A DNA stretch of 64,000 nt, from positions 89,712 through 153,711 of the IMG/VR virus record IMGVR_UViG_3300046318_000491; one strand, written 5' to 3'. The position numbers were made by a program, and so were the translations under genes. Of the stretch, positions 12,691 through 36,524 are shown piece after piece (the first letter of the stretch is position 1; each line of letters opens with the position of its first letter). Source of the stretch: a virus. Under the pieces are notes generated by a model. It worked only from the letters and a program-made list of their open reading frames with translations. It was not told the origin of the DNA and did not search any database.

Positions 12691-13107
12691 TTATCCAATA
12701 GGAGCATCTAGTAGACCGCCAAATGGATTGGAAGACTCTGGATTGAAGTCAGTAGCTGGAACAAAAGGCTTTATTTCTTGACCGTCATAGTCGTATTCCA
12801 TTCCGTCGGAATCTGAAGATGACTCTTTTGTCTTTGGTGCAGCGTAGTGGTATTTAGTTTTATATAGACTTTCGAAGACATGTATCCTTCGAGCGTCCGT
12901 CATTTGAGCTTGTTCCACGGTTGAGTAGTTAAAATCTTCCTCGTAGAAATAATGAATGACATCTAGCATGTCAGAGATATCCATCTCCGAAAGTTTTAAA
13001 CCATTCACTATTGCTTTTCCGTTAATATAAGGCCAGAGGTCTACTGCCCAGTTGAGGAGCCCTCTGGCTGCGCTTCCGGGCGGTTGCTGTACGATTCCAA
13101 AAGCCAA
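12691..13107 (-). CDS. Tail assembly chaperone, second (downstream) ORF
   Basis: Overlaps the first chaperone ORF in the -1 frame, immediately before the tape measure gene. True start uncertain. Confidence 0.6.
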   Translation of the reverse strand: MAFGIVQQPPGSAARGLLNWAVDLWPYINGKAIVNGLKLSEMDISDMLDVIHYFYEEDFNYSTVEQAQMTDARRIHVFESLYKTKYHYAAPKTKESSSDSDGMEYDYDGQEIKPFVPATDFNPESSNPFGGLLDAPIG

Positions 13108-13391
13108 GCAACAATTTCGCTTAGGGTCTCTACAGAAACAACTCGGTCTTTATCCTCTAGAAGAGCGTCAAAACGAGCAAAGCTCTCGTCTTTCAGAACC
13201 TTCTTGAAAAATGTACCAATGGTACGGGCTGATGCAGCAGGGTCATCTGACGAGGCATCTTCAACGATAGAAAGCATAACCTTACCCTGCATACGCGGGA
13301 CGCAGTGGAACTCTTCTTCGTATAGTTTAAATGAAAGCGGCTGAGCTTCTTCTGCAGTAGCTCCAGTACCAAAATCCTTGAATCTAGTCAT
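13041..13391 (-). CDS. Tail assembly chaperone
   Basis: 116 aa acidic protein upstream of the tape measure gene, ending in ..WL.E.Y..RP. Confidence 0.7.
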   Translation of the reverse strand: MTRFKDFGTGATAEEAQPLSFKLYEEEFHCVPRMQGKVMLSIVEDASSDDPAASARTIGTFFKKVLKDESFARFDALLEDKDRVVSVETLSEIVAWLLESYSNRPEAQPEGSSTGQ

Positions 13392-19994: not shown

Positions 19995-22900
19995 TTAGGT
20001 AAGGAGTCGGAGCAATGTAGCCATTTGAGATTGAACCTCGGCCTGGCTATACACGTCTGCTCCAGACATGTAGGACTTAAGCTCTTGCGTAGCAATAGCG
20101 CCATCCTCTTTACCGATCTTTGCTTCGACTCGAGTGATCATGTCTTTCATGAGACTCTTGAGTCCAGCAGGTAGATCGCTAAACTTTAACTTGTCATTTT
20201 CACTACCGAAAGGGAGTGGAAGGTTAGAAATAACCTTTCCCAGCTCCGCTGCTGTAGCTTTGACATTCTCTAAGGACTCGGCATTTAAGGCCTTAGAATC
20301 AATTCTATCAATTAAGCCTAGTAGCTCTGTGCTGGCTTTAGTTGACTCTAGATAGTTCCCAGCGAAGTCCATATCCTCGGCGTGCTGCACCTTCTGTAAT
20401 GCATCCTGAAGACCAGTAGCACCTAGGTTCTGCTTTAGACGAGCAAGCACCTTGCGGTACTTTCCTCGAGCATCGCGAGGCTGAGTTACGGGAGTATACT
20501 TACTACGACCCTCTTCGTCGTAGACTTCCTTAGCGGTAGTCTTGCCAGTGCGGATATCTTCAGCAATCTTTATTTCTTCTTCAGTCTGCTTATCAGCTTC
20601 GGCTTTTACTTCTTTCAGCTTTTCAAGGTCTGACTCAGATATTTCTTTTGGGGTATCAGCGAGCTCCGTAATCGAGGCGATCACTGATCGCATCTTCTCT
20701 ACCGAAGCGGCAGCCTCACGGGTGGAAGCTGACTTCCACTCCTGGGGAATAAGGTTGAACTGCTTTAATGCACGCGCACGCTTAGTGATGTGCTTACGGG
20801 CCGGGGCACATGCTGCGCCCTTAAGTAGGTTGTATGCCTGAAGAGCATTCTTCAAGTCGCCTTCGTTGCGGATCGGCAACATACCATTAGGCATAGCACC
20901 ACCACTAGCAATAAGCGACTCTAGCTCTTCACCAGAAATCTTTGATAGCTCGGCAGCAGCGGCAGCTATAAGCGCTTTGTGGCGCAGCTCGTCTACCTTT
21001 GCAGAAGCCAGCATGCTGCTCTCTTTGTTCCACTCTTCCGGAACTAGGTGACGAGCGTTTAGCTGGCGGGCACGCTTTTTGATGTGCTTCTTTACATCAG
21101 CCTTGTGAGATTCTTTCGCGCGGCCGTATGCCTGAATCCCATTGCGTAAATCTTCTACGTTTTGGATCGGGAATGAGCCGTCAGGAAGCGCCTTGCCTTC
21201 TTCGGCGAGCGCCATACGCTGGTCACGATTTAGGGCAGCAAAGTCAGCCCATACCTTGTGCTTAGCTGCTGCAAGGCGAGAATCAATATCAAGAGCTGCG
21301 GTTGTCATGCTTAGCTCGCTCATGCGATTTGCACGCTCTACGAGAGACATAACTGCGTCACTTTTCATAACAGCCATGTAGTGAGCACCAGCTGCAACTA
21401 ATGCAAATACCTTGCCTGATGCAACAAGTGCACGGGCAATAGGGAACCCTGGAACGTTAACCTGGCAAACAGCGACAAGCTCAAGCTGTCCGTTAATTGG
21501 ACGCCAGTCGCCTGAAGGCGCAGATGCACGTAGGGCACGGATTTGAGCTTCGGTCGCGTCTGGGCGCAGCGAGCCTGAGACCCAGATTCCGTAGTCATCT
21601 TCACCAGCGTGAACATCAGCAATCGCAGATGCAGTGTCATCATAGTGCTTAGCTGCAGCCCGAGCGTCAGCCTGAAGAGACGCATGACCACCAGCAAGAG
21701 TCAGTTGACCTACCGGAACGTCAGCTCCACTAAGGGTGCGTACCACACCAGTGTGGAAGTAAGCGTACTTGCTCTTTGAGCGTGGAGGTCGAGTCGAGCG
21801 AGGCATACCGATGTGGTTCACATGCCAAGCTGCGATGTGTCCGTAAATCTTGCCATCAGGATCGATGGTCATAGGAGTGGCTTTTTTGAAACCAGGATTC
21901 TGGAACCACTCAGTCGGAGGGGTTACCGGGATCTCTGAGTCTAAAAAACCTGAGGCAATTAGAGCTTCCTCTGCAACGAATGTGTCAACAGACTCTTCGT
22001 AGATTCCGTCTTCTGGAACCATCGTTTCCTCCTGGATGCCCGCAGCGTTATCTTCAACAGAAATGGTGCATTCCTGGAAAGCTGGCTTAGCTACAATTGT
22101 AGCAGCCATTACACGTGCGTGATTTATGGTAAGTTTCTGCTTGCCAATGTCCTCTGGACCTTCAGCATTTTCAGTGACCTCTGGCTTGTCTTCTTTAGCC
22201 TCGAACTGGTCGAGGTCTGCAGATACGCCACGGATAAAGCCGTTGCGCACTAGACGCTCTGCTTCGCGACCGTAAGGTCCAGTATCAAACACGCCATAAG
22301 CGTTTCCAATACCATTTTCGATTCTCTCCATATAGTCGATACGGCCGACTACTACCGAACCATTGTGACCTTCGCCAGTCTTGATCTGCCAAAGCAGAGG
22401 AAGGGGGAGCTCGCGAATTTCAATTGCGTTGGCGTCAAACTTACGACCATCGCCAGACTCCATGTTCTCCGGGATAAGAAGTGGGATGATGAACTTAGAT
22501 CCAGCATCTCCAGCAGACGCGACCAGACCGGTAAAACGCTCTCGTACTTCAGCCGCGCGGGCTGCAAGTGCGGACGCCTCGATTATGGCAAGATCAAATG
22601 TTTCGCTACTGTAACTGCTGGCTTCATTACCAGGGTTCATTCGGCTACCTGTGTAAACGCCAGTTGCTTCCTTGTGACGAAGCTGGCAGTAGCCCTTAGC
22701 GCGAACACCCATGTACTTTGAAAGATGGCGAACGCAACGAGTCCAGTCGCCAGGAGTGCCCCAGCGGATCTTGGCAGCGCCCTTACCGGTAGTCCAGTAT
22801 TGGCGAAGCTCTTCTGCATTGCCTCGGTTACGGTCTAGGCCTCCTGCAGCTGCAACTGCACTAGCAGCCTTTACGCAGTTTGGAACATGCTTACCGTTTT

Positions 22901-24863
22901 TATCTTTAAAGCCAATTTGCTTGTAGCCATCCCAGCAAGGGTCTTCTGCTGCATGCTCTGTAGTTGCAGCAAGGCTGGCAACAAGTGAAACTAGGTCCTT
23001 CTGCCATAGAAGCGACATGCGACCGCTGGCAGTTACATTTACGATGCCATCTACTTGCTTAAGCACATTGTTTAGGTCAGCTCCAGCTAATTCTACTACC
23101 GGTGGTGGGGTGGCCGACTTAAGGTCCATAAGGACCTGGTCATTAGAAACCCACTTACCCTCTTCACGCTTGTAAGTAGCTGGCTCAGTGGAGGCCGCGG
23201 TCTTAGGGACAATCGCAACCAAGTCCATAACCGCACTAGGATCTTCCTGAGTGACGATAGCTAGGTATTTAGGGGTGACATCAGAAGTCTCCGGGTCCAG
23301 AGCTTTTTCAACTTCAGGGCCTGCAGCAGTTATAGGGTCAGCCGCGTCATAGCGGTCAGAGATACGCTTCTCGTCTTTAGAGTCGATTGACTTGTAGCTG
23401 CTACGCTGAGAAGAAACATACTTACCCCAGTCATTGAGCAGGGAGCCTAGCATCTCGCGAGTCATCGGTGGAAGTGTTCCAGGTAGGTGAGCTGCTGGCT
23501 GATTAATAGGAGTTCTAGGCTCTCCTAGAATTCCAGAAACATCTAGTGGCTCGCCAAACTTAAAGTCGCGGAATGGGGCAGCAGGCTTAACTCGGCCGCC
23601 TTCCTGAGCGGTCTGTTTGGCATCCACGTCAATAGTATTACCGCTGTCTAGCTTTACCGAAACCTTACCGGTAGCGTTATCTACAGCAGTGATCTCGCCA
23701 GAACCGCGTTCCGCGTCACCGCCTACAACTACTCGATTCCCAGCCTTAGCGAACAGGCCACCCGCATCGCGAACCTGAGAGGAAGCACGAGCTGACCTCT
23801 CGTCAGGAGTATCCACTCCGTCTTGATTGTTGCCGGCTGAAGGCGACTTAGATGCAGCAGCAGTCATTGCGCGATCAACTAGAGTCCAGTCGATTGCTTC
23901 GAGTGCATCAGAGACCATCTGAGCCTCTTCGGGGTCGATAGCCTCTAGCGGTACTGGCGAGCCCGGGGTCTCATTCATAATCGCAGAAAGCACGATAGCT
24001 GAACTTGGGTCAATAACTACGTGAGTCTTCTCGCAATTGTCGTATGCATCGTCGAGAGCCTTGTCATAGGTATAAATATCGCTATCCACGTGGCCTAGGT
24101 TATCCCAGCAGCAGTCGTCCCAGACATGGACGCTACCGTCTAGCTCGACCTTGTAGAGTCGGTCAATGCCTTCTCCGTCATGACGAATACGTGCAATAAA
24201 TTCAGGACCATAGTTTTCATCTAGCTCGTTGATGACCTTAAAATCATTCTTTGGAGTAGAGTAATCTTCAATAGCAGCTTCATAGCCGGGAATTTCGTAG
24301 CCACCAGCAGTAAGAGCTTTTTTGTTTTCACGCTCTACGATTGCAGCAGCCCAACGCTGTCCAGCATCTCCACCCCAGAGCGCCCAAGCGATTCGGCCGT
24401 TAGATGGGAAGTGCTCTTCGCCTGGTGCCCAGCCCTTGCCCTTTTTGTCAACTTCGTGACGAGGGAAGTACTTAGCGATGTGGCGAATCTTCTCGATACC
24501 AATCTGGCCACCCTTTGCAAGAGTGCGTGCAGTGTTCAAGCCGACAGGTGTTCCGCCACGCTTTGCTTCACGACGCCAGTTAAGAGCTTTTTTAGCTTCT
24601 GCCTGAACACCACCAGGAATGGTGTACATACGGGTCGATGAGGCAACAATAGTCTCTACGTTCGATGTAACAATAGCCGCTGAGACAAGGTCATACAGTT
24701 CGTTGGTTAGTGGGCTGTTCCCATCCGCCCATTCGCGTGAAGCCGATAGTTCAGAGACGTCACCGGTTTCAACTACTAGATTTAGGGTAGTGTCAATTAC
24801 TACACCTTTAGAGTCGCCGCCAAATAGTGCTAGCGAACCATTCGAACCGATGAACTGCAACAT
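19995..24863 (-). CDS. Capsid maturation protease fused to multiple accessory domains
   Basis: 1622 aa. Protease-like core ESGDGR..LPLPLLWQ..GH.GSVVVGRID..GVSADLD. Cluster B-like GKIYGHIAAW...SGDWR domain. Duplicated ALPDGSFPI.N..DL.N.IQAY domain. Directly upstream of the major capsid gene. Confidence 0.75.
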   Translation of the reverse strand: MLQFIGSNGSLALFGGDSKGVVIDTTLNLVVETGDVSELSASREWADGNSPLTNELYDLVSAAIVTSNVETIVASSTRMYTIPGGVQAEAKKALNWRREAKRGGTPVGLNTARTLAKGGQIGIEKIRHIAKYFPRHEVDKKGKGWAPGEEHFPSNGRIAWALWGGDAGQRWAAAIVERENKKALTAGGYEIPGYEAAIEDYSTPKNDFKVINELDENYGPEFIARIRHDGEGIDRLYKVELDGSVHVWDDCCWDNLGHVDSDIYTYDKALDDAYDNCEKTHVVIDPSSAIVLSAIMNETPGSPVPLEAIDPEEAQMVSDALEAIDWTLVDRAMTAAASKSPSAGNNQDGVDTPDERSARASSQVRDAGGLFAKAGNRVVVGGDAERGSGEITAVDNATGKVSVKLDSGNTIDVDAKQTAQEGGRVKPAAPFRDFKFGEPLDVSGILGEPRTPINQPAAHLPGTLPPMTREMLGSLLNDWGKYVSSQRSSYKSIDSKDEKRISDRYDAADPITAAGPEVEKALDPETSDVTPKYLAIVTQEDPSAVMDLVAIVPKTAASTEPATYKREEGKWVSNDQVLMDLKSATPPPVVELAGADLNNVLKQVDGIVNVTASGRMSLLWQKDLVSLVASLAATTEHAAEDPCWDGYKQIGFKDKNGKHVPNCVKAASAVAAAGGLDRNRGNAEELRQYWTTGKGAAKIRWGTPGDWTRCVRHLSKYMGVRAKGYCQLRHKEATGVYTGSRMNPGNEASSYSSETFDLAIIEASALAARAAEVRERFTGLVASAGDAGSKFIIPLLIPENMESGDGRKFDANAIEIRELPLPLLWQIKTGEGHNGSVVVGRIDYMERIENGIGNAYGVFDTGPYGREAERLVRNGFIRGVSADLDQFEAKEDKPEVTENAEGPEDIGKQKLTINHARVMAATIVAKPAFQECTISVEDNAAGIQEETMVPEDGIYEESVDTFVAEEALIASGFLDSEIPVTPPTEWFQNPGFKKATPMTIDPDGKIYGHIAAWHVNHIGMPRSTRPPRSKSKYAYFHTGVVRTLSGADVPVGQLTLAGGHASLQADARAAAKHYDDTASAIADVHAGEDDYGIWVSGSLRPDATEAQIRALRASAPSGDWRPINGQLELVAVCQVNVPGFPIARALVASGKVFALVAAGAHYMAVMKSDAVMSLVERANRMSELSMTTAALDIDSRLAAAKHKVWADFAALNRDQRMALAEEGKALPDGSFPIQNVEDLRNGIQAYGRAKESHKADVKKHIKKRARQLNARHLVPEEWNKESSMLASAKVDELRHKALIAAAAAELSKISGEELESLIASGGAMPNGMLPIRNEGDLKNALQAYNLLKGAACAPARKHITKRARALKQFNLIPQEWKSASTREAAASVEKMRSVIASITELADTPKEISESDLEKLKEVKAEADKQTEEEIKIAEDIRTGKTTAKEVYDEEGRSKYTPVTQPRDARGKYRKVLARLKQNLGATGLQDALQKVQHAEDMDFAGNYLESTKASTELLGLIDRIDSKALNAESLENVKATAAELGKVISNLPLPFGSENDKLKFSDLPAGLKSLMKDMITRVEAKIGKEDGAIATQELKSYMSGADVYSQAEVQSQMATLLRLLT

Positions 24864-24866
24864 AGT

Positions 24867-25229
24867 TTAGTTATCCTCTGCTGGAACTTCAGAATTAGAT
24901 CGGAGTAGTTCAGCATTTTCTTTTAGAACGTCTAGGGTTAACTCGCCACTGTCGTAAAGCTTAAGAGCTTTAGGGGTAATAGAGTCGTAGTTATCGAAAT
25001 CAAATTCATCGTTGATAACAATTGACTTGTCTGCTGACCAGTCAAGCTGATACACGTCGTCTCCGGACAACTCGTCAATACGGCTGTCCTCGCGAGTAGT
25101 GGGGGCCCAGTCGGAATCTACACGATCTAGGATGCCCAGCGGGGTAAAGCAGTATGCAGCATCGATTGCCTGAGTTTCTGGGTTTACGTAGAACCACACA
25201 TCGATGACGCTGCTAGTTGGTTGTGCCAT
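24867..25229 (-). CDS. Hypothetical acidic protein
   Basis: ORF track; likely start MAQPTSS at 25229. Confidence 0.6.
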   Translation of the reverse strand: MAQPTSSVIDVWFYVNPETQAIDAAYCFTPLGILDRVDSDWAPTTREDSRIDELSGDDVYQLDWSADKSIVINDEFDFDNYDSITPKALKLYDSGELTLDVLKENAELLRSNSEVPAEDN

Positions 25230-25295
25230 TTTTATTCTTTCTGCGCAGGAAAAGGCGAAGTATTCCATTCACCATGGCTAATCTCTATTTTAGCA

Positions 25296-25511
25296 CTATT
25301 TATCGTTATTGTTATTAGGGTCTAGCGGTAACTTGTTTAGTTCGCGATATACGATCTCTTCGGTGGCTTCAGGGATCTGAAAAATTAGGGCAGAGAGCTC
25401 TTCGTCTGACAGCTTCTCTAGATCAAGGATGCCACCAACTTGACCCTTTTCATCAGAGATATCTAAAGTGTAGGGAAACTTAGTCTTAAATAGGCGCGGT
25501 GGGTTAGACAA
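25296..25511 (-). CDS. Hypothetical protein
   Basis: 71 aa, overlapping the upstream stop. Confidence 0.55.
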   Translation of the reverse strand: MSNPPRLFKTKFPYTLDISDEKGQVGGILDLEKLSDEELSALIFQIPEATEEIVYRELNKLPLDPNNNNDK

Positions 25512-25767
25512 CTTCTTCTCCTCTGGACTCGACGCGGTCTAGGAATGCTAGTACTTCATCTGAAAGGCCATCCAAGGATGTAGAAGCAGGGTCTAGCATA
25601 TTCATCTCTTCAATTATTGACTTTTTAAAGTCATAAGAAGTGTAAAAATAGCCAATGTCATTGGCAGTTTTGTCCCAGGTCTTTCCATTACGGCTATAAA
25701 AGTCCGACTCTTCAGCCATATGAAGAGCTTCACCAAACCTGTGAGATAGAAGTTTATTTTCAGTCAT
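25504..25767 (-). CDS. Hypothetical protein (leaderless)
   Basis: 87 aa; -10 TAGGAT lies 6 nt upstream of the ATG. Confidence 0.6.
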   Translation of the reverse strand: MTENKLLSHRFGEALHMAEESDFYSRNGKTWDKTANDIGYFYTSYDFKKSIIEEMNMLDPASTSLDGLSDEVLAFLDRVESRGEEVV

Positions 25768-25781
25768 ATGCCAATCCTACA

Positions 25782-28718
25782 CTAAAATTTCTCTACTTGA
25801 AGTACGCCTCGGTTAAAGAAAGTAAAGTAGCTCGTGCCGCCACCCATGATAATTTCAATACCGTCAAACCCGAGTAGACCAGCGATATTGCTATAGTTGC
25901 TTCCATTTTGATTAAACGCAGGGAACGATGCTCTGATTTTAGCTACTTCATTGGCAATTTCATCTGAGCCAAGATCCAAGTCTGGGAACATTTCGTTCTG
26001 AACTTTCTCTTGAAGCAACTTAATTAGCGCATTGTCAATCATATTGACATCTATACCACTGGCGTCCGTTGCTGCCTTAGCAGGGTCGACTAACTTACTA
26101 CTAGACGGTGTCGGCCTACCGGACTGGTCCATAACATAGATCTTTGCTTCTGGTTTAATCGCCATGTTAAGAACCCCTCCACCGCTAGAGTACCCACTAG
26201 CAGTTGATCGGTCAGTAGCGGCATACAAACCATCGCCGTACATTTTGGTAGATGAATAGTAAGGAACGTCATCCTCTACAAACTTCATCATCAAGTCTTT
26301 GGCTGAGTCATTCCTGTGAGGAGAGATTCCTCGGAACAGCTTAGGTAGAGCTGGATCTAGCTTGTCCACTAGCTCTGGCTTATTGGTCTGAAAACCTAAC
26401 CAGCGAGCAATCTTGTGACCCTCTTTAGGACCGAAACCAGCGAGGAATCCGTGTGCGCCATCAGCGTCTTCAGGCGAGCCCTTCTGAAGCTCTTCTTCGT
26501 GTAGATCTAGGAAGTCAAGGATCTTCTTAAAGAATCCTGCCTTCCCTTCTCGCCACTTCTTGCTTATCTGACGCTTGGTTAAACCCTTAGACTTTAGAAG
26601 TTCACGGAACCACTCAGGGGCCTCGCCGGTTAGAGCATACTTAGCAAATAGCTCGGCAAAGTCCTCGGTCTCATGATCCGCGCCGCGGCCACTGATTGGA
26701 GCAGTTCTAATGCTCTTCTCTGTTGAGGCGGGGGCTGCGGCTGCTGGCTTAGGAGTTGCAGCAGTGTCTAACCCTAAACGAGTAAGAATATCGTCACGTC
26801 GGTTCTTAAGGGTATTCTGCAACTGAGCCTTGACCACTGGGTCAGAAATTATCTGATCAACCAGGCTATCAATGTCCTGCGGCGTAATCTGCTGAAGAAT
26901 GGCAGCACTGTCTACCTTCTGCTGCTGAGTCATATCGCCAAAGACCTGAGCCACACTGTAGCCCGAATTTTTGTCGACAAATGAGTCTAGCTCTATAACA
27001 GTGTCGCTAAACAAAGTACCCTTAGGAGCACCCTGAGCACGGAAAAGCAAGGAGCCGCCAGGATCTACGCGAACGGGGGTGCCATTAGCATCGGTAAGAA
27101 TATTACCCTGACTTATGCTAGCCCCGATAACGTCCCAGTTGGCTAGCCATGCATCCATAGCGAATCCGCGCTGAACTTCAGCAAGATACTTAGGGTCTTT
27201 TATGCGCGTGGCAAGGTCGTTAGTGCTTCCAGGAAGTATGTGCGAATAAGTAATGTCCGCGCCGTTTTGGTTTCCCGGGAGAATAGACACAGCCCCGATG
27301 CCGGCTAGGTTGTAGAACGCAGCAGCTAAGCGCTCGTTCTCTCCGTGAAGCTGAGATTTAGGGACTTTTAGGTATATAGAGTCACCCGAGACAGGGTCGG
27401 TGTACGTTCCACCAGGATTCGAGCCAGCCTGTGGGCCGGTCTGAGTCCAATTACTTACATCTCGCTTATTAAACTGTTCGCGTAGCACATCGGCAGTAGT
27501 GGTGGAAAGAATAACGTCAGCTGGCCTAGGCGTGGCATCGTCAGGGATTACTTCATAGTCACCGCCACCATACTTCGAGATATCTGCTAGAAGCTCGGAT
27601 TCACCGTTGCTAGTAGGGCCGCCCCAGTAGCGGTGCTGGATCTTGTGACCAGCCTCGTGGGCAATAACATGGCTATAAGCTTCGTCACGTGTAGTGATAT
27701 CAGTAGACCAGTAGGAATCTGGACGACCGATATTGTCAGCTTCTTTATTGAGACGCTGCACGTATAGATTGATGAAGTCAGAGGTTGAATAAGTAAAGCC
27801 AATAGTCTTATCATTCAGCTGAGAGCTAATATCGGCCGGAACCAAGCTCTTCTCCGAAAGAAGGTTAATCTTTACGGCTTCTTTGTAGAGTCCACCCTTT
27901 TGGAGGTTGCGGATACCTAGAAGAGTGGCCTTAACATCTTCAAGACTTGCCTTTGGTACGAGCGAGCCAGCAGGGGCTTCCGTATCCATGTGGATGTGGA
28001 TCTCGTGCTTACTTGATGTATTCACAACTCGAATGAAAGACTTGGCTGCATTAGTGCTACGGTCGTTTAGGTCTTTAGCTGCTTTTACGGCAGCACGGTA
28101 CTTAACTTCAGAATCGCTTAGGTTGTATTTCTTATAAGTGTTTGAGTAAAGCTCCTTTAGGGATTCTCCCTCGAGCTTTGCACCCTGAATTTCCCAGCCT
28201 GGTTCGTTGTTGAAGTAGTCAATTTTTGGCATGTTGGTACGGAAAGCTACCTTAGCCTCTTCAAATGCCTGATCTACAGTTTTAGCTGCAGTACCGCTGC
28301 GAGTAAGCCCTAGAAACTTAGCATTAACGCGAGCAGTACCTCGGGCAGATAGGAAGTCATCACCTTTATATGGGATAGGGGTGAAGGCTTCACTCGGGTC
28401 GAAGCTGTCGTAGTGGAACTGGAACAACGCAGTCAACGCATCGACATACTGGTCTTCATCGCCAGCATTTCTAGCAATTCGGACATCGCTTAATAGATCA
28501 GTAAATGTCTCATGGTTATGACGAGCAGGGATGGTTTCAAACATCTTCTGCTCTACAGCATTGAGAATTTTCCAGTCTGGATTAGACGGAACATTTCTTG
28601 GACGACCGACTCCACGCTTTTTAGGGGTACGAAGCTTTGACAAGTCAAAGTTTCTAGTAGAAGGAGTCTTTACCGGGGCTGAGCCTGCTCCATCGGAGCT
28701 CGAGTCAGCCCGATTTAT
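25782..28718 (-). CDS. Frameshift-accessed C-terminal extension: zinc metallopeptidase-like + kinase-like + ADP-ribosyltransferase-like domains
   Basis: The frame stays open up to the slippery site. HEAGH and EDFAELF (zincin-like); GSNPGG..YLK..NE, DAWLANWD and RVDPGGSL (PI3/4-kinase/HipA-like); LFRG..YGDGLYAAT..GFDGI (ART-like). Confidence 0.7.
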   Translation of the reverse strand: MNRADSSSDGAGSAPVKTPSTRNFDLSKLRTPKKRGVGRPRNVPSNPDWKILNAVEQKMFETIPARHNHETFTDLLSDVRIARNAGDEDQYVDALTALFQFHYDSFDPSEAFTPIPYKGDDFLSARGTARVNAKFLGLTRSGTAAKTVDQAFEEAKVAFRTNMPKIDYFNNEPGWEIQGAKLEGESLKELYSNTYKKYNLSDSEVKYRAAVKAAKDLNDRSTNAAKSFIRVVNTSSKHEIHIHMDTEAPAGSLVPKASLEDVKATLLGIRNLQKGGLYKEAVKINLLSEKSLVPADISSQLNDKTIGFTYSTSDFINLYVQRLNKEADNIGRPDSYWSTDITTRDEAYSHVIAHEAGHKIQHRYWGGPTSNGESELLADISKYGGGDYEVIPDDATPRPADVILSTTTADVLREQFNKRDVSNWTQTGPQAGSNPGGTYTDPVSGDSIYLKVPKSQLHGENERLAAAFYNLAGIGAVSILPGNQNGADITYSHILPGSTNDLATRIKDPKYLAEVQRGFAMDAWLANWDVIGASISQGNILTDANGTPVRVDPGGSLLFRAQGAPKGTLFSDTVIELDSFVDKNSGYSVAQVFGDMTQQQKVDSAAILQQITPQDIDSLVDQIISDPVVKAQLQNTLKNRRDDILTRLGLDTAATPKPAAAAPASTEKSIRTAPISGRGADHETEDFAELFAKYALTGEAPEWFRELLKSKGLTKRQISKKWREGKAGFFKKILDFLDLHEEELQKGSPEDADGAHGFLAGFGPKEGHKIARWLGFQTNKPELVDKLDPALPKLFRGISPHRNDSAKDLMMKFVEDDVPYYSSTKMYGDGLYAATDRSTASGYSSGGGVLNMAIKPEAKIYVMDQSGRPTPSSSKLVDPAKAATDASGIDVNMIDNALIKLLQEKVQNEMFPDLDLGSDEIANEVAKIRASFPAFNQNGSNYSNIAGLLGFDGIEIIMGGGTSYFTFFNRGVLQVEKF

Positions 28719-28724
28719 TTTGGG
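28676..28724 (-). promoter_or_regulatory. Programmed -1 frameshift signal (C CCA AAA plus downstream hairpin)
   Basis: Heptamer at 28724-28718 just before the TAA. 6-nt spacer, then stem GGGCTGA/TCAGCCC with inner GCTCC/GGAGC. Confidence 0.8.
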
Positions 28725-31700
28725 CCGCGGTTCGCCCCCATTTCGACGACTTCGATGTGTTCATCGCCGTTTTGATCCATGTAGTAGACACCCAGCCCTG
28801 GGTCTCCACCGTCCAGAGCATCTAGCTCAACAATTTCTGCAACGCTACCTAGATAATCGCCGTCTTCACTATACCAAGCGTCACCGGTGTCCATAGATGC
28901 AACGTTTCCTACAACAGGGGCAGCTGGTGTTTGATCGTCAGCTGATACGCCACTGTTACCTAGGTACGGGACGGCTGGTGCCGGGTCAGCGTCATCGCCA
29001 TCGTCATCTGGGCTAACACCGGCAGAGCCGGCATCAGACTTACGACGCTCAACGTCTCCGAAGTCCACAACACTAGCGAGTGAAGGGAGGCCACGTGCAG
29101 CAATCATAGCTGCACCCTTAGGTGAAGGAATGTAGTCGGTCGGGGTTGAGTCCTCATTGTCGGTTCCAGTTAAACGGTCCATGTACTTGGTAGCAAGAAT
29201 ATTAGCTACGGTGCCATTAGCAAAGCGCACGCGAGCAGTATCCTGATACCCAGCTACAGAAGGGTTTAGAGCAATGATAGTACCGACAGATTCTTCACCC
29301 TGTGAGTTATAGTAGCGAACCTTGTCACCCTGCTCGATGATCGTGCGGCCATTTCTAGATGCCCATGGGCGACGCTGAATGTCTCGGAGGTCAAACCCTT
29401 CAGACATCAATTGCTTCTCTAGCACACTTGGCAACTGCGCAAATTTGGCTTGCTGCGGGTGACCAGAGTAGCGAGTCTTAATTCCAGACTTTAACTTATT
29501 GATTAGAAGACTACGCGAGCCTTCGTTGTCTGGTAGGTGGCCTAGTGCCTGAACCAAGGTCTGTAGAACCTGATCACCGTCAGTGTCATAGTCATTCTCT
29601 AGTACTTCCCAGAAATTCTGTAAGTAGTTCTTTAGAACAGATCCATAGGTCTTGCTGTTCTTTGCAAGGTTAAGCTCGCGTGGGCGACCTTCTAGGAATT
29701 TATCAACTAGCTCGTCTGGAGTTAGAAGCTTGAACGAGGTCTTAGTGTAATCCTCTGGAGTGAAGGCACGTCCAGCTGCAGACTTGTTGCGGAAGAAACG
29801 GACACGACGCTCTAAAGGCGACTTCTCTCCAAACCACTTACGTAGTTCCTCTGATTTAGGGTTTCCAGGAGTAGAACGGCCTAGAAGCTGGTCACGAAAT
29901 ACGTACAAACCATTCTTTTCGCCGAATAAGCCCTTGAAAGAGTCCTTGTAGTCGTAGTGGTAGAAGGTTTGCTCTTCGCCAGTAGCCAAGTCCTTGAACT
30001 TATAACGTTCCATAAACTTGTTGTCGAAAGTTCGCTCTACGGCTGTTTCGTACTGATATGTTTTACCGTCATTGTCAGTGAATTGGGAGCGCTCGATGAT
30101 GATAGCGTCGTCTGATCCAATAACTGCTTGAGGAAATTCTTCTAGCAAACCGTTGACGATTGCATCTGGATCTTCAGCCGGAACTGACTTTCCGTTCTTA
30201 ACCTGCATAAGAGGCTTACCATCTTCGCCGAATAGCGGGGTAATCTTTTTTGCGCGAAGCTCGTCCTGAGGGGTAATTCCAGGAGAAACGTACTGCCCCT
30301 TATCTGCGCGAGTCTTTTTTGCTGCCGCGATTGCACTGCCCTTAGGGGTTTTAGTTCCAGAAGGCTTAGTAGTGGTTCCGTCGCTGTTCTTAGTCCCCTG
30401 AGACTTAGCCTTAGCAACCTTAACCTTTGGAGCTGCTGGTGTCTTTGTTTTTGCAGCAGGAGCGGCAGGTGCTGATGGTGCTGTCGGGGCATTGTCTGGT
30501 ACCGCTGGCTGTGCAGCAGGTGCAGCAGGTGCAGCAGGTGCTGCATTGTCAGACGGGCGGTCAATGTTAGCCTGCTGGCTACGGCTGAAGGTTTCCATGC
30601 GAGTCTTGCCATCTTCATCAACAAAAGTGACTCGGGTGGCTGGTTTGCCGTTGAAGTCAACAGCATCGTTAGAGACCTTAGTTACATCACCGCGGAAGAT
30701 TCCGTTAGTGCTGTACAGCTTATCGCCATTTTTGACATCTGTAGCATTAATAAATTTAGATGTACCTGGAGCTGTAGGAACCGGAGCAGCTGGAGCGGTA
30801 TCTGCTGGCTTAGCCGCCTTGTTCGCGGTAGGCTTTGCTGGTGCAACATCCTGGTAGTCGGTGATAGCTTTAACTTCGTCATCATTGCTGATCTCTAGGT
30901 CGCGGCGGTTGCCCTTGTCATCTACCGCTGGGATATTGATAGCTGTCTGGTCCGAGTTCCAGTCTGCATCACCATCAAGCTTGAGGGTGTCAAGAGTCTT
31001 AGGGTCGATAATGTAGTCGCCCTTCTTAAGGTCAAGACCAAACTTGTACTCCTGCTGTAGGGGCTGAATGTTAAAGTCCCAACCAGAGCCCGCTGGAGCC
31101 TGAGCTGCATTAACTTTATTTAGAAGATCATCAAGACTAGGAACTTCGTCACCATAAGCAACATCTCCCATGATGTCTTTCACTATGTCATCAACCGAAC
31201 TGACGGGAGCTGCGTCAGGAGTAGTGGCACTTTCAGCTGGAAGAACATCCATGTCGCCATCAGCAAGATCTTTTATGTTGCTAGCAGGGACTTCTTTACC
31301 GCCAGCCGAGTCCCGACGCCATGTGTCAGGACCGGTCTTGGTGGCGGTAATCTCAGCGCCGCCCTTGCCGTCGGTGTTTACGCGGTCCTTAAGCTTTACA
31401 GTAGTACCTACTGGAGCTTCATCAATTGCCTTATCGTTGGCAGCCTTTCGAGCGTCGTACGCAGCTCCCGGGGCAGCAGCATCTCCAAGGTCATGACCAA
31501 TAAGCTTTGCAACCTCGTCTTGAGGCATAAGACCTTCTGCCCCCGGAGCAAGCTTCGCAAGAGGTGACTTGTCACGCTCGGACTGAATGGTTGCCTTCTG
31601 GTCATCGGTAGGAGCGTCAGTAGCAAGTTTGATATCTGACTCGGTTGCAGGACGACGGTTCATGTCCGCTATATCCTGAATGTCAGAGTCTAGGCGCTCG

Positions 31701-32068
31701 GTTGCGCTGGTAGCAGTCTTTTTAGTAATGCCCTGCTTCTTAAGAACTGAATCGGGAATAGAAGCGTCGAACTGCTCTGCATTGCGAGAGGTTACGTCGT
31801 AGATGTAGTAATTGCCGTCTGCTTCTTTTACAAGCTGGCGTGCATAACCTGCACGCTCTGAAGCACCGATGTAGACACCGCGCTGGTCTTGGACACTGCC
31901 GTCTGACATGCGGACCTTGGCTAGAAGGCCTCGACCCATCTCCATCCACTGGCCCTTGCCATCGCGGAGCTGGATTCGCCAAAAGCCCTTGTTAGCACCA
32001 TCGTTGAATCCGAGAGCTGTCGCTGCTGCGATAACGGCCTTTGACTTGAACTTGTCTAGATAAGACAT
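28715..32068 (-). CDS. Large head-associated (putative internal/ejected) protein
   Basis: 1117 aa between the portal/dps genes and the protease. N-terminal RIQLRDGKGQW motif; Pro/Ala-rich linkers between small domains. Confidence 0.65.
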   Translation of the reverse strand: MSYLDKFKSKAVIAAATALGFNDGANKGFWRIQLRDGKGQWMEMGRGLLAKVRMSDGSVQDQRGVYIGASERAGYARQLVKEADGNYYIYDVTSRNAEQFDASIPDSVLKKQGITKKTATSATERLDSDIQDIADMNRRPATESDIKLATDAPTDDQKATIQSERDKSPLAKLAPGAEGLMPQDEVAKLIGHDLGDAAAPGAAYDARKAANDKAIDEAPVGTTVKLKDRVNTDGKGGAEITATKTGPDTWRRDSAGGKEVPASNIKDLADGDMDVLPAESATTPDAAPVSSVDDIVKDIMGDVAYGDEVPSLDDLLNKVNAAQAPAGSGWDFNIQPLQQEYKFGLDLKKGDYIIDPKTLDTLKLDGDADWNSDQTAINIPAVDDKGNRRDLEISNDDEVKAITDYQDVAPAKPTANKAAKPADTAPAAPVPTAPGTSKFINATDVKNGDKLYSTNGIFRGDVTKVSNDAVDFNGKPATRVTFVDEDGKTRMETFSRSQQANIDRPSDNAAPAAPAAPAAQPAVPDNAPTAPSAPAAPAAKTKTPAAPKVKVAKAKSQGTKNSDGTTTKPSGTKTPKGSAIAAAKKTRADKGQYVSPGITPQDELRAKKITPLFGEDGKPLMQVKNGKSVPAEDPDAIVNGLLEEFPQAVIGSDDAIIIERSQFTDNDGKTYQYETAVERTFDNKFMERYKFKDLATGEEQTFYHYDYKDSFKGLFGEKNGLYVFRDQLLGRSTPGNPKSEELRKWFGEKSPLERRVRFFRNKSAAGRAFTPEDYTKTSFKLLTPDELVDKFLEGRPRELNLAKNSKTYGSVLKNYLQNFWEVLENDYDTDGDQVLQTLVQALGHLPDNEGSRSLLINKLKSGIKTRYSGHPQQAKFAQLPSVLEKQLMSEGFDLRDIQRRPWASRNGRTIIEQGDKVRYYNSQGEESVGTIIALNPSVAGYQDTARVRFANGTVANILATKYMDRLTGTDNEDSTPTDYIPSPKGAAMIAARGLPSLASVVDFGDVERRKSDAGSAGVSPDDDGDDADPAPAVPYLGNSGVSADDQTPAAPVVGNVASMDTGDAWYSEDGDYLGSVAEIVELDALDGGDPGLGVYYMDQNGDEHIEVVEMGANRGPK

Positions 32069-32213: not shown

Positions 32214-32705
32214 CTAGCGCATCCCTAGCGTGGCTTTTAGCTGCCAGGTCCACTTGCTGTAGATGTCTAGAAGCTCTGCCGCGTAGTTTGCAATCTGCTG
32301 AGCATCTAGGGCATTAGCGATATCAAATAGCTTAGATGCCTCTGATGCAAGAGTTGAGTTGACCATGAGCAGCGACCCAAGCATTGCCTTGGCGTCACCA
32401 CCGTTGATTCGTTCCTCCTTGATGCAGGAGATTTCGCAGAAGTCAGTTAGTAGGTAAGGGGCATCGAATCCATTTACAAGTAGGTACTCGGCTAGCTTGT
32501 CGATAGTACCGTCAAAGCTTTCGTAGATCTCTGCAAAAAATTCGTGAAACTGAGTGAACTCCGGGCCCATGACATTCCAGTGATACCCGTGAGCCAAGAA
32601 CTTGGCGGTTACGTTATCTGAAAGAAGGTGAGCTAGCTGGAACCCTAGTTCTTCTTTAGTAGGGCCTGCCATTTCGGCAGCATCTACTACGGTCATGTTT
32701 TCCAT
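32214..32705 (-). CDS. dps: Dps / ferritin-like DNA-protecting protein
   Basis: HGYHWNVMGPEFTQFHEFFAEIY..DKLAE ferroxidase signature; C-terminal K..WQL. Confidence 0.9.
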   Translation of the reverse strand: MENMTVVDAAEMAGPTKEELGFQLAHLLSDNVTAKFLAHGYHWNVMGPEFTQFHEFFAEIYESFDGTIDKLAEYLLVNGFDAPYLLTDFCEISCIKEERINGGDAKAMLGSLLMVNSTLASEASKLFDIANALDAQQIANYAAELLDIYSKWTWQLKATLGMR

Positions 32706-32706
32706 A

Positions 32707-34440
32707 TTATGCCTCTGGTTCTGCTAGGGGTGGGGCTGCGCTAGGTGCAATAGGTTCAGCTGGGGCTGCCTCGGTAGGCTGCCCGCCCTGAAGTAGCTGA
32801 TCGATCTCTGGTGACATAGGAGCAACAGAATTAGCCTGCTGATTTTCCTTTACCAACTTGATAATCTCCGGTGCGACCGCAGCCAAAAGGTTCTCGGTGA
32901 ACTCCGGGGTAATAGCTCCCTTACTCACAACTAGGCGCATTGCAAGTTCATTAGGAGTCGGAGCATCCTGATCCGAGAATCCGTGAGCACGACGCCAAGT
33001 ATCAAAGCTGACGGCCATCTTATCAAAACCAGCATCAGCATCTGCAGCACGGTCGTTACGAGTAGCAACGTGCGATGGGTCATACCAAATCTGAATTCGG
33101 TTAACGTCTACATCTTCATAACCTAGCGACTTCAAGTATGGTCGCATGTAGACAACAGTCAGTGCGTCAACAATGAGTAGCATCAGAGGCTCGATGTGCG
33201 CCTTGTAGAGGGCTTCGTCGATCTGAAGAGCGTTAGAGTACTTAACGTTTGCTAGGCCCGTCACGACGTCCTTAGGGACGTCTAGACCCTGCATGATGCG
33301 CTCTAGTACACGGTCGGCACGAGAGACAAGCGAGTCGTCGAATGAACGCTCGAACTTGAACTGCTTGATCTTGTCGCCAAGTTCTGCAGGACCGCGGATG
33401 ATAAGTGGAACAACGGCGCTCGCTGAGTCCTCGTCCTTAATCGGAGTGGTCATTGCATCGATGAGCTGATCTTCAAAGTCGTCAGCAGCTTCTTCGGTAT
33501 TGTAGAGCTCGTTGTATTCGCCATCTTCATCGTACGGGTAGTCCGGGTCTGGAGATGCTGCCACTGATAGACCGTCTGGCAAGTAAAGAGCACCAGCGTT
33601 GAGGCGCGAACGTGCAGTTGCACGGAAGGTACGGTTTAGAAGTAGAAGCTCAGCGCAGAGATCGAGTAGGCCTCGTAGTGAAGAGTCCGCTTCCATAGAG
33701 TAGCGAGGGTGTGCCTTCCAGATACGTCCGATAAACGCGTCCTTAGGTAGGCGAAGAGCATTCTTAGAGGCAGTCATTGAAGAGCTGCCACCAACATCAC
33801 GAATAGGGTTAATAACGTACTGACCCTTCGCATCAACCTGCAGCTCGTCAACTGAGCGCATGTCCCAGGTCTCTGGCAGCCCTGAGCCGATACGCTCTGG
33901 AATCTGAACTAGGTAGCACTCGCCAGTAACCTGTAGGTTTAGAGCTGCATCTTTAAGAAGGCCAGCCTGGCCTCCGTAAGCTGAGTCAAGACGAGCAAGC
34001 GCACGCTGAGCAGCAGATGCAATGTCTTTTTCTAAGGTCTCTGACTTGTCAATAGGAATTGGAGCTTCGGCAGGGTCATCTACAACAGCAGCGTAAAGGC
34101 GGATGCGAGATACCACAGACGCAACAAGATTGAACGCATATTTCACCTCTCCAATGGCATCGTAGTATTCCCAAGCTTCTGTCTGCCATGAGCCAGCAGC
34201 CCCTTGACGGCGAGCCTTGAAGCGTTCGGCCTCTGTCTTGTCATCCATCTTTACCTGAACTGCAGCAGCAGTCAGAGGTCGTGCAGAATTAAAAGGAGCA
34301 GCCTCGGCATAAACAAGACCGAAAGAATCTACAGAGATTCCAGGTGCAATAGGGGTGGCACTACGTGGAGCAGACGCTCGTAGGCCAGTCGCGCTACGGC
34401 GCTGGCCTTCGTTCTTTGGGGTACGTTTAAAAATTCCCAA
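32707..34440 (-). CDS. Portal protein
   Basis: 577 aa downstream of terL. WQ.EAW.YYD.IGE motif and R...GLD.P.DV..G as in cluster B-like portals. Confidence 0.85.
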   Translation of the reverse strand: MGIFKRTPKNEGQRRSATGLRASAPRSATPIAPGISVDSFGLVYAEAAPFNSARPLTAAAVQVKMDDKTEAERFKARRQGAAGSWQTEAWEYYDAIGEVKYAFNLVASVVSRIRLYAAVVDDPAEAPIPIDKSETLEKDIASAAQRALARLDSAYGGQAGLLKDAALNLQVTGECYLVQIPERIGSGLPETWDMRSVDELQVDAKGQYVINPIRDVGGSSSMTASKNALRLPKDAFIGRIWKAHPRYSMEADSSLRGLLDLCAELLLLNRTFRATARSRLNAGALYLPDGLSVAASPDPDYPYDEDGEYNELYNTEEAADDFEDQLIDAMTTPIKDEDSASAVVPLIIRGPAELGDKIKQFKFERSFDDSLVSRADRVLERIMQGLDVPKDVVTGLANVKYSNALQIDEALYKAHIEPLMLLIVDALTVVYMRPYLKSLGYEDVDVNRIQIWYDPSHVATRNDRAADADAGFDKMAVSFDTWRRAHGFSDQDAPTPNELAMRLVVSKGAITPEFTENLLAAVAPEIIKLVKENQQANSVAPMSPEIDQLLQGGQPTEAAPAEPIAPSAAPPLAEPEA

Positions 34441-34752: not shown

Positions 34753-35112
34753 CTAGTCTCTCATCGATGTGATTGTTTTGTAAGCATTCCAGCTTCGAAG
34801 GCGGGATCCGCACCCGCAGTTGGTGTCCTTTTTGAATGCTAGCATCTTTCCGGTCTCAGTCACAACGCGGTAATCGCCTTTTTTATGCATCGGCGGTAAG
34901 AATTCAGTATATTTTTCACGAAAAATGATCTGTGCACCGTCCGGCGAGTCTTGAGCGACAACAATTAGCTCGTCTGTGACTACAACACGCGTTGTTGCGA
35001 TGTAGTGAGCCCCTTCAGTGGCTGGAGCGGAGGTCAAAGACGTAACATCGTCAGTAAAATCGGCTGAAACTACCGCCAAGTGAGCTGGAAATATATCTAC
35101 AAGTACTTTCAT
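34753..35112 (-). CDS. Hypothetical protein with C-terminal CGCGS motif
   Basis: 119 aa, coupled to terL. Confidence 0.65.
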   Translation of the reverse strand: MKVLVDIFPAHLAVVSADFTDDVTSLTSAPATEGAHYIATTRVVVTDELIVVAQDSPDGAQIIFREKYTEFLPPMHKKGDYRVVTETGKMLAFKKDTNCGCGSRLRSWNAYKTITSMRD

Positions 35113-36524
35113 CGGACTCTGAATGTCCCGCCACGGCCAGGAGAGCCCCTTCCGGTAGTAGGAAGACCGATTTTTCGGTCTCCCATGCTCTTTGCGCGGA
35201 TTTTTCCACCCGAAAAGCCCGGTGGTGGCTTAATTAGCAGTGCTGTAAGGCCATGAACAAGAGCATCAACGCGGTCAGGTGATTTACCCTCTCCAGGTAC
35301 CCAAGAAATCATCTGAGACTCTAAATCAGCCAAAAATCCAACGTGGTGAACGCGATTTTGCTCGTAAGCTAGGGTAATTGGCTCTGCTCGGAGTGCTTTT
35401 CCTTGCTTGGAGTGGACTTCAAGTACTTTAATTGTAGGGTCGATGGTGTTGATCGCGTTGCGTACAAGAGCACCGCCCTGATTAACTTCTGCAACAACGG
35501 GACAACCCCACTTTCGCGCCATTTGAACAACTTTATTGGCCCAAACGTCGGGCGAACCGTGTACTGAAGCGTCTTCAAGCACCCAGGCCTGTCGCTTATA
35601 TAGATCATGCTCTGCAGTAGACGCTACGACGACTATACCACACTCATCGCGAGGGTTTTCGGCAACAGATGGGTCAACACCGATACAGCGTAGAGGTGTA
35701 TTTAGTGGGTAGAAGCCCTCACGTCCAGATTCGATAGATTCTTCGGTCCAGAGAGCACCTTCCATGGCCTCAAGCATTTCACCATAAAGCTCCTGACGGG
35801 CAAGAGAGGTTCCCTGGTATACGCCAAGCATCGTGTCAAGGTACGCGCCGGCCAAGTTACCAGCGTTATCCATGGTAGAACCACGAGTAATTTTTACAAT
35901 GTCACCTTTTAGCGACTCTTCAATGAGCTTATACAGAAGCGGGGTACGCTTTGGCGTGGTAGTTACAAGAATCTGTGGGTTCATACCAAGACGAGTACCA
36001 ACGCGAAGGTTGTCGAACGCGGTCATGCCTGCAGCATCTGGAGTTTGACGCCAAGCTGCGATCTCATCGCCCCATGCGTGAGTAAACTGAGGACCACGGA
36101 GTGAGTCAGGTTCATCGGCGGTGAAAAGGGAAGCGGTGTTTCCATTAGGCCAAGTTAGACGACGCTTTGATGGCTCATAGAGTGGACGTTCAGATGGAGG
36201 AGTAACGTTTAGAACGCCAGACTCACCTTCAACGATAACGTCACGCACGTCTGCAGCGGTACGAGCAACGAGACCGAAGCGACGCTGACCAGTGTTAGTG
36301 TATTTGGCTTGCTCTCTCACCCATTCGGAGGCTAAGCGAGTCTTACCAAAACCACGACCTGCAAGTACAAGCCAAACGTTCCAATCGCCAGCGGGAGCTT
36401 GCTGCTCCGGACGACCCCAGACAGACCAGTCCCAAAGTAGGACCTCGGGATCCATGCCAGCTAAAGCTTCGGCTCTTTCGTCAGGAGGAAGCTCCGAGAG
36501 CTGCTCCATAATACTTTTACCCAT
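35109..36524 (-). CDS. terL: Terminase large subunit
   Basis: Walker A AGRGFGKT, Walker B WGDE, TTTP motif, nuclease motifs GVDP and SPDRVDA. Confidence 0.95.
   Translation of the reverse strand: MGKSIMEQLSELPPDERAEALAGMDPEVLLWDWSVWGRPEQQAPAGDWNVWLVLAGRGFGKTRLASEWVREQAKYTNTGQRRFGLVARTAADVRDVIVEGESGVLNVTPPSERPLYEPSKRRLTWPNGNTASLFTADEPDSLRGPQFTHAWGDEIAAWRQTPDAAGMTAFDNLRVGTRLGMNPQILVTTTPKRTPLLYKLIEESLKGDIVKITRGSTMDNAGNLAGAYLDTMLGVYQGTSLARQELYGEMLEAMEGALWTEESIESGREGFYPLNTPLRCIGVDPSVAENPRDECGIVVVASTAEHDLYKRQAWVLEDASVHGSPDVWANKVVQMARKWGCPVVAEVNQGGALVRNAINTIDPTIKVLEVHSKQGKALRAEPITLAYEQNRVHHVGFLADLESQMISWVPGEGKSPDRVDALVHGLTALLIKPPPGFSGGKIRAKSMGDRKIGLPTTGRGSPGRGGTFRVR

Follow-up and report, generated by a model that had tools for sequence, protein, structure and literature searches.

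How is an open reading frame (ORF) of 978 codons translated when it lacks a convincing start of its own and lies, in the -1 frame, directly behind a large gene of a phage head module? The question is raised by ORF-A and ORF-B, which together span positions 25782 to 32068 of a 64,000-nucleotide (nt) stretch of viral DNA, hereafter referred to as the window. The window covers positions 89712-153711 of the 153,711-bp IMG/VR record IMGVR_UViG_3300046318_000491, which has terminal repeats and is rated 100% complete. ORF-A and ORF-B are predicted, with high confidence, to be one gene recoded by a programmed -1 frameshift. Such a shift, joining a head-associated protein to an enzymatic extension, had been proposed in an earlier note made from the letters of the window, and the proposal is supported by a site that is invariant in 15 assemblies, by coding in the -1 frame, by the absence of a start for ORF-B and by in-frame fusions in relatives. 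All features located below by window coordinates lie on the minus strand.

The junction between ORF-A and ORF-B

ORF-A (28715..32068) encodes the zero-frame product of 1117 amino acids (aa), here termed the carrier, and begins with an ATG preceded by AAGGA. Its 3' end reads GGC CCA AAA TAA, which holds the slippery heptamer C CCA AAA in the X XXY YYZ register (28718..28724) and the zero-frame stop TAA abutting it (28715..28717). A putative stimulatory hairpin (28676..28711) starts 6 nt past the heptamer. The -1 frame is open from 36 nt 5' of the heptamer to 25782; ORF-B, the extension in this frame, occupies 25782..28721 (978 codons past the shared Lys, and a stop), and the predicted fusion is 2095 aa long. 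Between the two ORF bodies lies a transframe linker (28572..28717; INRADSS...RNFDLSKLR...GRPRNVPSNPDW in the -1 frame), apparently intergenic and open in the -1 frame only, which holds the conserved motif [RK]xFD[LT]SxLR. The earlier note had described the end of ORF-A with its heptamer, the strong hairpin, the open frame and a fusion of about 2095 aa, as well as a downstream ORF with only a TTG start and no clear ribosome-binding site, and all of these were found in the sequence as it had claimed.

The hairpin folds at -22.9 kcal/mol (z = -3.2 to -3.6), a stability equalled by 0-1 of 200 dinucleotide shuffles. When the coding strand is scanned across the window, it is among the most stable 0.19% of 45-nt segments, and it ranks second in stability among the structures behind the 159 X XXY YYZ heptamers of that strand. 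No U-tract follows the hairpin and its interpretation as an intrinsic terminator was therefore rejected; transcriptional slippage was likewise rejected, as the runs are merely C3 and A4. No Rfam family was found at the site. This strand carries a single further CCCAAAA in the 64 kb. This other copy, C CCA AAA at 20646-20652, is in register within a 1622-aa MuF-like ORF, has no hairpin behind it (-2.8 kcal/mol) and leads into a -1 frame that closes after 5 codons; this copy can be taken as a negative control from within the window. The phage's own tail-chaperone frameshift was also considered as an internal comparison and was dropped, since the overlap lacks an X XXY YYZ motif. The tail assembly chaperone pair lies at ~12691-13390, with the T-like frame at -1 relative to the G-like ORF, the end of which is near 13043. 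No X XXY YYZ heptamer is present in this overlap and a chaperone shift, if any, would therefore use a non-canonical site.

Coding in the -1 frame was examined over the 165 nt past the stop in the window and four of the relatives described below. This interval has 0 stops in the -1 frame versus 2-11 in the other two frames, and the -1 translations can be aligned, with K-I-[ND]-R-A at the junction, followed by [RK]xFD[LT]SxLR and by I-P-x-x-H at the start of the ORF-B body.

The linker is also the place where ORF-B would have to start if ORF-A and ORF-B were two separate genes, ORF-B being initiated at TTG 28643 or ATG 28544, perhaps coupled to the termination of ORF-A, and the heptamer and the hairpin being incidental or concerned with RNA stability or pausing. 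The earliest canonical start in the -1 frame, TTG 28643, would indeed yield a 953-aa ORF, and gene callers annotate the homologues separately (that of the closest full-length homologue recovered, P0004, from an ATG). In addition, an AUA overlaps the stop (A-UAA) and might permit weak reinitiation, and 10 of the 29 ORFs considered in the window do without a Shine-Dalgarno (SD) motif. However, the candidate starts do not behave as the starts of a conserved gene. The first canonical starts lie at +66 to +396 nt across the relatives, at positions that do not align and are not homologous. SD-like motifs, found at 19 of the 29 ATG-started ORFs of the window including ORF-A (AAGGA), are absent from TTG 28643 and from the next three candidates, and none was found at the 13 candidate ORF-B starts of the five sequences examined; every ORF-A start has (A/G)AGGA or AAGGAC. 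Conserved -1-frame residues, including the FD-S-LR motif, lie upstream of the first ATG, GTG or TTG in the relatives L009 (+171 nt) and L014 (+324 nt), and in L014 the first available start would cut off ~50 conserved residues. Reinitiation would moreover leave unexplained the fixed C of a variable codon, the exclusive CCA and the rare AAA at the site, and two separate genes would not account for the in-frame A-B fusions (both described below). Two separate genes are therefore considered improbable. Judging from these sequences, the ORF-B frame is fully translatable only by entry from ORF-A.

In the standard model of -1 frameshifting, ribosomes on ORF-A would arrive at C CCA AAA, with CCA occupied by tRNA-Pro and AAA by tRNA-Lys, and the hairpin 6 nt downstream would resist unwinding. 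A fraction of the ribosomes would slip back by one base, with tandem re-pairing on CCC AAA, and would continue in the -1 frame to give the 2095-aa fusion with the junction ...NRGPK-INRADSS..., and unshifted ribosomes would terminate at the adjacent TAA and yield the 1117-aa protein. The two products would be made at a fixed ratio set by the frameshift and may co-assemble via the shared ORF-A part. Since it has no start of its own, the extension would depend on ORF-A, to which it would be joined as a tail, both for its synthesis and for its localisation, in the proportion that the frameshift sets.

Conservation of the site in related phages

Relatives were found by protein search, followed by a DNA pattern scan and by scans based on protein alignments. 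The protein search yielded one full-length ORF-B homologue (P0004, 37% identity), encoded on contig L009, and the ORF-A homologue of this contig ends in the identical string gaaccgcggcccaaaataaat-gggctg. The site is present in 15 distinct assemblies from different metagenomes, namely the window, L009, L013, L014, L015, L018, L019, L020, L022-L026, L030 and L031. All 15 carry CCCAAAA in register, an immediate TAA or TAG, a GC-rich hairpin 4-6 nt later and a -1 frame that runs for 300-1000 codons without a stop. Both the heptamer and the hairpin singled out in the earlier note are hence retained in position among the relatives, the hairpin being weak in L031. Identities to the window are 36-54% for ORF-A, 30-39% for ORF-B and 72-84% for the portal protein. 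The site is thus a short patch of identical nucleotides within a pair of genes that otherwise evolve fast.

The codon preceding CCA is GGC, AGC, GTC or CTC, specifying Gly, Ser, Val or Leu, and its third base is invariably C; in the ORF-A genes of these assemblies, CTC makes up 9% of the Leu codons and GTC 17% of the Val codons. Pro at the site is invariably encoded by CCA (39% of the Pro codons in these genes) and Lys invariably by AAA, though AAA represents 24% of their Lys codons. The heptamer is, by this codon choice, under synonymous-site constraint. In 13 of the 15 assemblies, the hairpin (z -3.0 to -6.1) is surpassed in stability by at most one of the 50-nt windows in the 3 kb to each side. 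Its base, GGGCUG/CAGCCC, is likewise kept in 13 of 15, and the upper stem varies in sequence and length between the subgroups. An upstream SD-like stimulator, as in dnaX, was considered and rejected as it is not conserved among the relatives: a G-rich tract occurs ~10 nt upstream in some (AGGAG in L015, GAGGAG in L022) and is absent in L009, L019 and L023.

The wider protein family was examined with a profile of the C-terminal 540 aa of ORF-A, searched against 1.84 billion representative proteins. The profile matched 95 representatives, at least 22 of which stop exactly at ...R-x-P-K, the last position of the profile, where x is G, S, V, L, N or D, each of which has NNC codons. Six representatives extend one residue further, to P-K-A or P-K-G; a scan of viral DNA with the alignment of the P-K-A-ending subgroup found no DNA locus for it. 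In seven others (P0044, P0045, P0052, P0060, P0068, P0070 and P0075), the C-terminal module of ORF-A continues directly, in frame, into pieces of the putative ORF-B zincin peptidase described in the next section, with junctions such as RGPK|IEING..., RGPK|VIKNA... and RAPK|QDMT.... These seven fusions indicate that the covalent A-B protein is a natural and selected state in the family. Not every relative recodes, since in L028 and L032 the C-terminal module is replaced and the frame simply continues for ~485 codons. Among cultured phages, neither megablast with the region nor tblastn with the distant members P0057 and P0044 gave a match, and thus no laboratory phage with the cassette was identified by these searches.

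The same data bear on the possibility that a single 2095-aa gene has been split by a sequencing or assembly error or, as a pseudogene, by a recent frameshift mutation. Fused, in-frame versions do exist in distant relatives, and short homopolymer runs can attract indel errors. Against this, the runs at the site are no longer than C3 and A4, the break lies exactly where a canonical shift site and a hairpin are found, at least 22 representative proteins end in R-x-P-K, and the frame is broken at the same nucleotide, with an adjacent stop, in 15 assemblies from different samples. The earlier note had named an assembly indel as what would refute its proposal; the 15 independent assemblies exclude it in practice, and an error or a recent mutation has a negligible probability.

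Several observations nevertheless weigh against recoding at this site, or against parts of the case made for it. RNAalifold, applied to the 15 sites, found 0 of 6 consensus pairs changed on both sides and the upper stems cannot be aligned; the 6-bp base of the hairpin is nearly invariant and also encodes conserved -1-frame residues. The hairpin is weak in L031 (z = -0.1) and modest in L030 (z = -2.0), and the 15 sequences, all members of a single viral clade, are independent only in part. A look-alike of the site occurs 20 nt into the portal ORF, where an in-register C CCA AAG (34414-34420) is followed by a hairpin of -22.8 kcal/mol (~34380-34405) and the -1 frame closes after 8 codons. A heptamer and a hairpin can thus arise together without recoding, as this look-alike has no usable -1 ORF; it is either a chance occurrence or a pause or attenuation site. 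As for the carrier, the folds recognised in ORF-A are generic SH3/KOW-like barrels with Z < 9, and its location in the virion is a prediction from gene order.

The putative carrier and its exchangeable cargo

ORF-B has no Pfam or PHROG match. Its tentative identification as a zincin metallopeptidase is based on motifs conserved in an alignment of five sequences, in which the HExxH motif is invariant and is followed ~330 residues later by an invariant E-x-F-A-E helix. In the window these correspond to the zinc-binding motif HEAGH (27645..27659; invariant H355, E356 and H359) and to the third-ligand helix E-D-F-A-E-L-F (26643..26666; invariant E686, F688, A689 and E690). Pieces with HExxH and E-x-F-A-E recur at the C-termini of the in-frame relatives. 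The AlphaFold model of ORF-B has a mean predicted local distance difference test score (pLDDT) of 65.6, with parts of the kinase region below 50; its Foldseek list is filled by kinase-domain matches.

The kinase-like domain (26757..27509) lies between the HExxH helix and the third-ligand helix. L015 ORF-B is devoid of everything between these two helices, which indicates that the 250 aa separating them in the window are an insertion into the peptidase. The insert is predicted to have a CtkA/PI3K-PI4K-like fold, matching the Helicobacter kinase CtkA (3akk, E = 3e-5, target TM 0.51-0.57) and PI3-kinases in Foldseek searches, as well as phage proteins in BFVD. It has no Pfam match; the four sequences in which the domain is present have the motifs GSNPGG, DAxLANWD and DPGG in common. 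At the sequence level, the module recurs in proteins of 2400-3900 aa with MuF, ART, RNase_T or NUDIX domains and is also present in Gordonia, Pseudomonas and enterobacterial phages.

The last 200 aa of the window ORF-B, comprising the C-terminal ART/PARP-like domain (25785..26384), have no Pfam match, and this assignment remains below threshold. The homologous region of L014 scores under the cut-offs for both PARP (22.5 bits, cut-off 26.7) and ART-PolyVal (PF18760; 13.5 bits, cut-off 31.2), PDB profile matches of the domain to tankyrases have E ~0.6, and an Atlas feature score of 0.94 to PF18760 clusters serves as a lead only. The C-terminal region may therefore be described, at this sub-threshold level, as ART-like and not as a member of the family.

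The cargo behind the site differs between relatives. It includes the kinase in the window, L009, L013 and L014, and lacks it in L015, as seen by alignment. The ORF-Bs of L018-L026, of 703-722 aa, fit the kinase-less arrangement as judged by length and partial similarity. In L030 the cargo is an unrelated 468-aa protein, and in L031 (8315-9235) it is a DEDDh exonuclease of the RNase_T type (Pfam 5.5e-13, 50.2 bits vs a cut-off of 24). The recoding junction would stay constant and serve as a docking point, with different cargo brought in behind it from one relative to the next. At least two predicted effector domains are present in one ORF-B polypeptide, encoded in the interval from the portal to the MuF-like gene. 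The order of the genes and the domains present suggest that ORF-B is a 'polyvalent' effector block made up of a zincin, a nested kinase-like domain and an ART-like end. The zincin may serve to release modules, as has been suggested for other polyvalent proteins (PMC5512222).

In the carrier itself, the motif IQLRDGKGQW is found in a conserved beta domain at the N-terminus; the protein also has Pro/Ala-rich linkers and the conserved C-terminal 540 aa. ORF-A gave no Pfam, PHROG or PDB sequence-profile match. A structure model built from 37 sequences (mean pLDDT 73.6) shows the beta domain at residues 30-100, disordered Pro/Ala linkers and a well predicted region from residue 580 to 1010. Three SH3/KOW/Tudor-like barrels were recognised in it (~435-505, 900-975 and 1056-1117; VIA-align Z 6.6-8.9, values at which a match may mean no more than a common arrangement); the model had no Foldseek match at E <= 0.001 and no usable Atlas match. 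The N-terminal domain is shared with gp68 of the Microbacterium phage Cece, a 1654-aa single ORF likewise situated behind the portal. Cece gp68 was considered as a cultured counterpart of ORF-A and was rejected, as it shares only this domain and ends without the heptamer. The 154-kb genome has just two copies of the motif Q[PL]RDxxGx[WFY], both in giant head-module proteins: at the N-terminus of ORF-A (31972) and in the MuF-like protein (20483, ~residue 1460). The motif is also found at the N-termini of Cece gp68 and of the L009 ORF-A homologue, and is a candidate for a shared docking or processing motif.

By gene order and by analogy with polyvalent proteins, ORF-A is probably a head-module, encapsidated protein, and we infer that the fusion would be delivered in virions as a minor product. 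It could instead be argued that the frameshift is regulatory and not structural, keeping a toxic enzyme block low or tying it to late translation, with neither product in the virion. Kinase-like and ART-like domains are typical of host-modifying enzymes, and ORF-A offers no recognisable structural fold, the packaging of either product being a prediction. The pair is, however, situated inside the head module in every relative, from the portal to the MuF-like and capsid genes, polyvalent proteins in such a context are predicted to be packaged (PMC5512222), and enzymes made late would bring little benefit if they did not travel on to the next cell. A purely regulatory role is thus regarded as unlikely.

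Genomic setting, known systems and significance

The virus appears to be an uncultured 154-kb phage of actinobacterial type, with a GC content of 47-48%. The nearest cultured relatives of its portal protein are those of Actinomycetia phage DSL-LC01 (69.5% identity) and of 186-195-kb Microbacterium phages. The portal matched 876 records, in which the organism names listed are all of actinobacterial genera, and an actinobacterial host is therefore probable. Among the phages indicated by the related portals are freshwater actinobacterial ones such as DSL-LC01. The minus strand of the window carries a siphovirus-type late module, with the large terminase gene (TerL, 35109-36524), the portal (32707-34440), a 163-aa DNA-binding protein (phrog_3636; 32214-32705) after the portal, ORF-A, ORF-B, three small ORFs of 87, 71 and 133 aa (24867-25767), the MuF-like protein of 1622 aa (19995-24863) as a separate ORF downstream of ORF-B, the major capsid protein (744 aa) after it and, in the rest of the module, the head-tail adaptor, the major tail protein and the tape measure. 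This order, TerL > portal > phrog_3636 ORF > ORF-A > ORF-B > three small ORFs > MuF-like > major capsid, is kept in the relatives, the phrog_3636 ORF being retained in all of them (41-51% identity). Related cultured actinophages have a single giant ORF at the position of ORF-A and ORF-B.

The small ORFs are retained in relatives with the zincin-type cargo. Those of 71 and 133 aa are also retained in L030, which has an unrelated cargo, and that of 133 aa is present in L028 and L032 as well, neither of which frameshifts; this distribution argues against their being cargo-specific immunity genes. A 735-aa ORF upstream of the terminase gene (36582-38789) has no PHROG match. Outside the window, the phage genome encodes a transfer-messenger RNA (tag ANSRSAFALAA; G000:C1:28578-28893) and three tRNAs, tRNA-Leu(UAA), tRNA-Met and tRNA-Thr(UGU), at G000:C1 7516-7597, 8451-8525 and 28390-28463, and no tRNA-Lys or tRNA-Pro gene was found in it.

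Programmed frameshifting of the -1 type is, as a routine, annotated in phages only for the tail chaperone and, in a small number of them, for small capsid or tail decorations. In Lactobacillus phage A2, the shifts, studied by Garcia in 2004 and Rodriguez in 2005, reportedly affect the major head (gp5A/gp5B) and major tail genes, the site being reported as C CCA AAA with a downstream structure. The A2 system resembles the one predicted here in that a structural-module gene yields, from one mRNA, both a short protein and a version lengthened at its C-terminus, owing to a -1 shift where the gene ends; it differs in that a small extension decorates major capsid or tail subunits, whereas here 978 aa of enzyme domains, variable in content, are attached to a non-capsid protein. 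That phage A2 has two -1 frameshifts in structural genes, and that C_CCA_AAG is highly shift-prone in E. coli, is documented in a review (PMC5009743), in which the two A2 studies are cited. The lambda gpG/gpGT pair is comparable as a conserved -1 frameshift in a phage morphogenesis operon with a fixed short:long ratio, but it concerns another gene, position and function, and its extension is a small tail-binding one and not a set of enzymes. Retroviral and totiviral Gag and Gag-Pol likewise join a structural carrier to enzymes through a heptamer and a structure, fixing the ratio and coupling localisation. Their proteins and hosts are, however, unrelated to those considered here, where the zero-frame stop abuts the heptamer and packaging of the carrier is a prediction.

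Phage polyvalent proteins (Iyer, Burroughs, Anand, de Souza, Aravind 2017, PMC5512222) are multi-domain proteins encoded beside the portal or terminase genes, in which the zincin metallopeptidase is a hub domain with variable inserts between its two C-terminal helices, together with ART and kinase domains. ORF-B resembles them in its putative zincin with an insert between two helices and in its position in the head module. Those proteins are single ORFs, and their kinase is of a truncated Ser/Thr/Tyr type of other bacterial lineages, whereas that of ORF-B is CtkA/PI3K-like; frameshifting is not mentioned in that paper (PMC5512222). The PRFect study (PMC10885494) flagged pairs of MuF-like and VIP2 ART genes in actinophages and raised the possibility that these genes, known as fusions from certain phages, are elsewhere connected through a frameshift. 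These pairs were listed among 'false positives' without analysis of a site and concern MuF, whereas ORF-A is not a MuF protein. The literature search found no paper combining 'programmed frameshift', 'polyvalent protein' and 'phage'. The mechanism is thus a textbook one, and the attachment by frameshift of a large, exchangeable enzyme block to a head-module protein is described in none of the papers searched.

It is tentatively proposed, as a possibility that goes beyond the recoding of this one gene, that R-x-P-K, C CCA AAA, the stop and the hairpin together serve a large family of uncultured actinobacterial phages as a dedicated recoding adaptor, fixed in evolution, which would arm one conserved encapsidated carrier, in proportions set by the frameshift, with interchangeable cassettes (peptidase, kinase, ART, exonuclease) that recombine behind an invariant site. 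Since ORF-B has no start codon of its own, standard gene calling would mis-annotate the family, its homologues being called from arbitrary internal starts; the succession of R-x-P-K, a stop and a hairpin provides a signature with which such cargo genes may be recognised in metagenomes. The predicted frameshift would govern the synthesis of ~1000 aa of predicted host-directed enzymes. If the fusion is packaged, the frameshift would set the number of effector copies delivered per virion, and the variable cargo could be swapped without re-evolving a packaging signal. Were the adaptor proposal to hold, the system would unite, in a phage, an equivalent of Gag-Pol with the cassette principle of polymorphic toxins.

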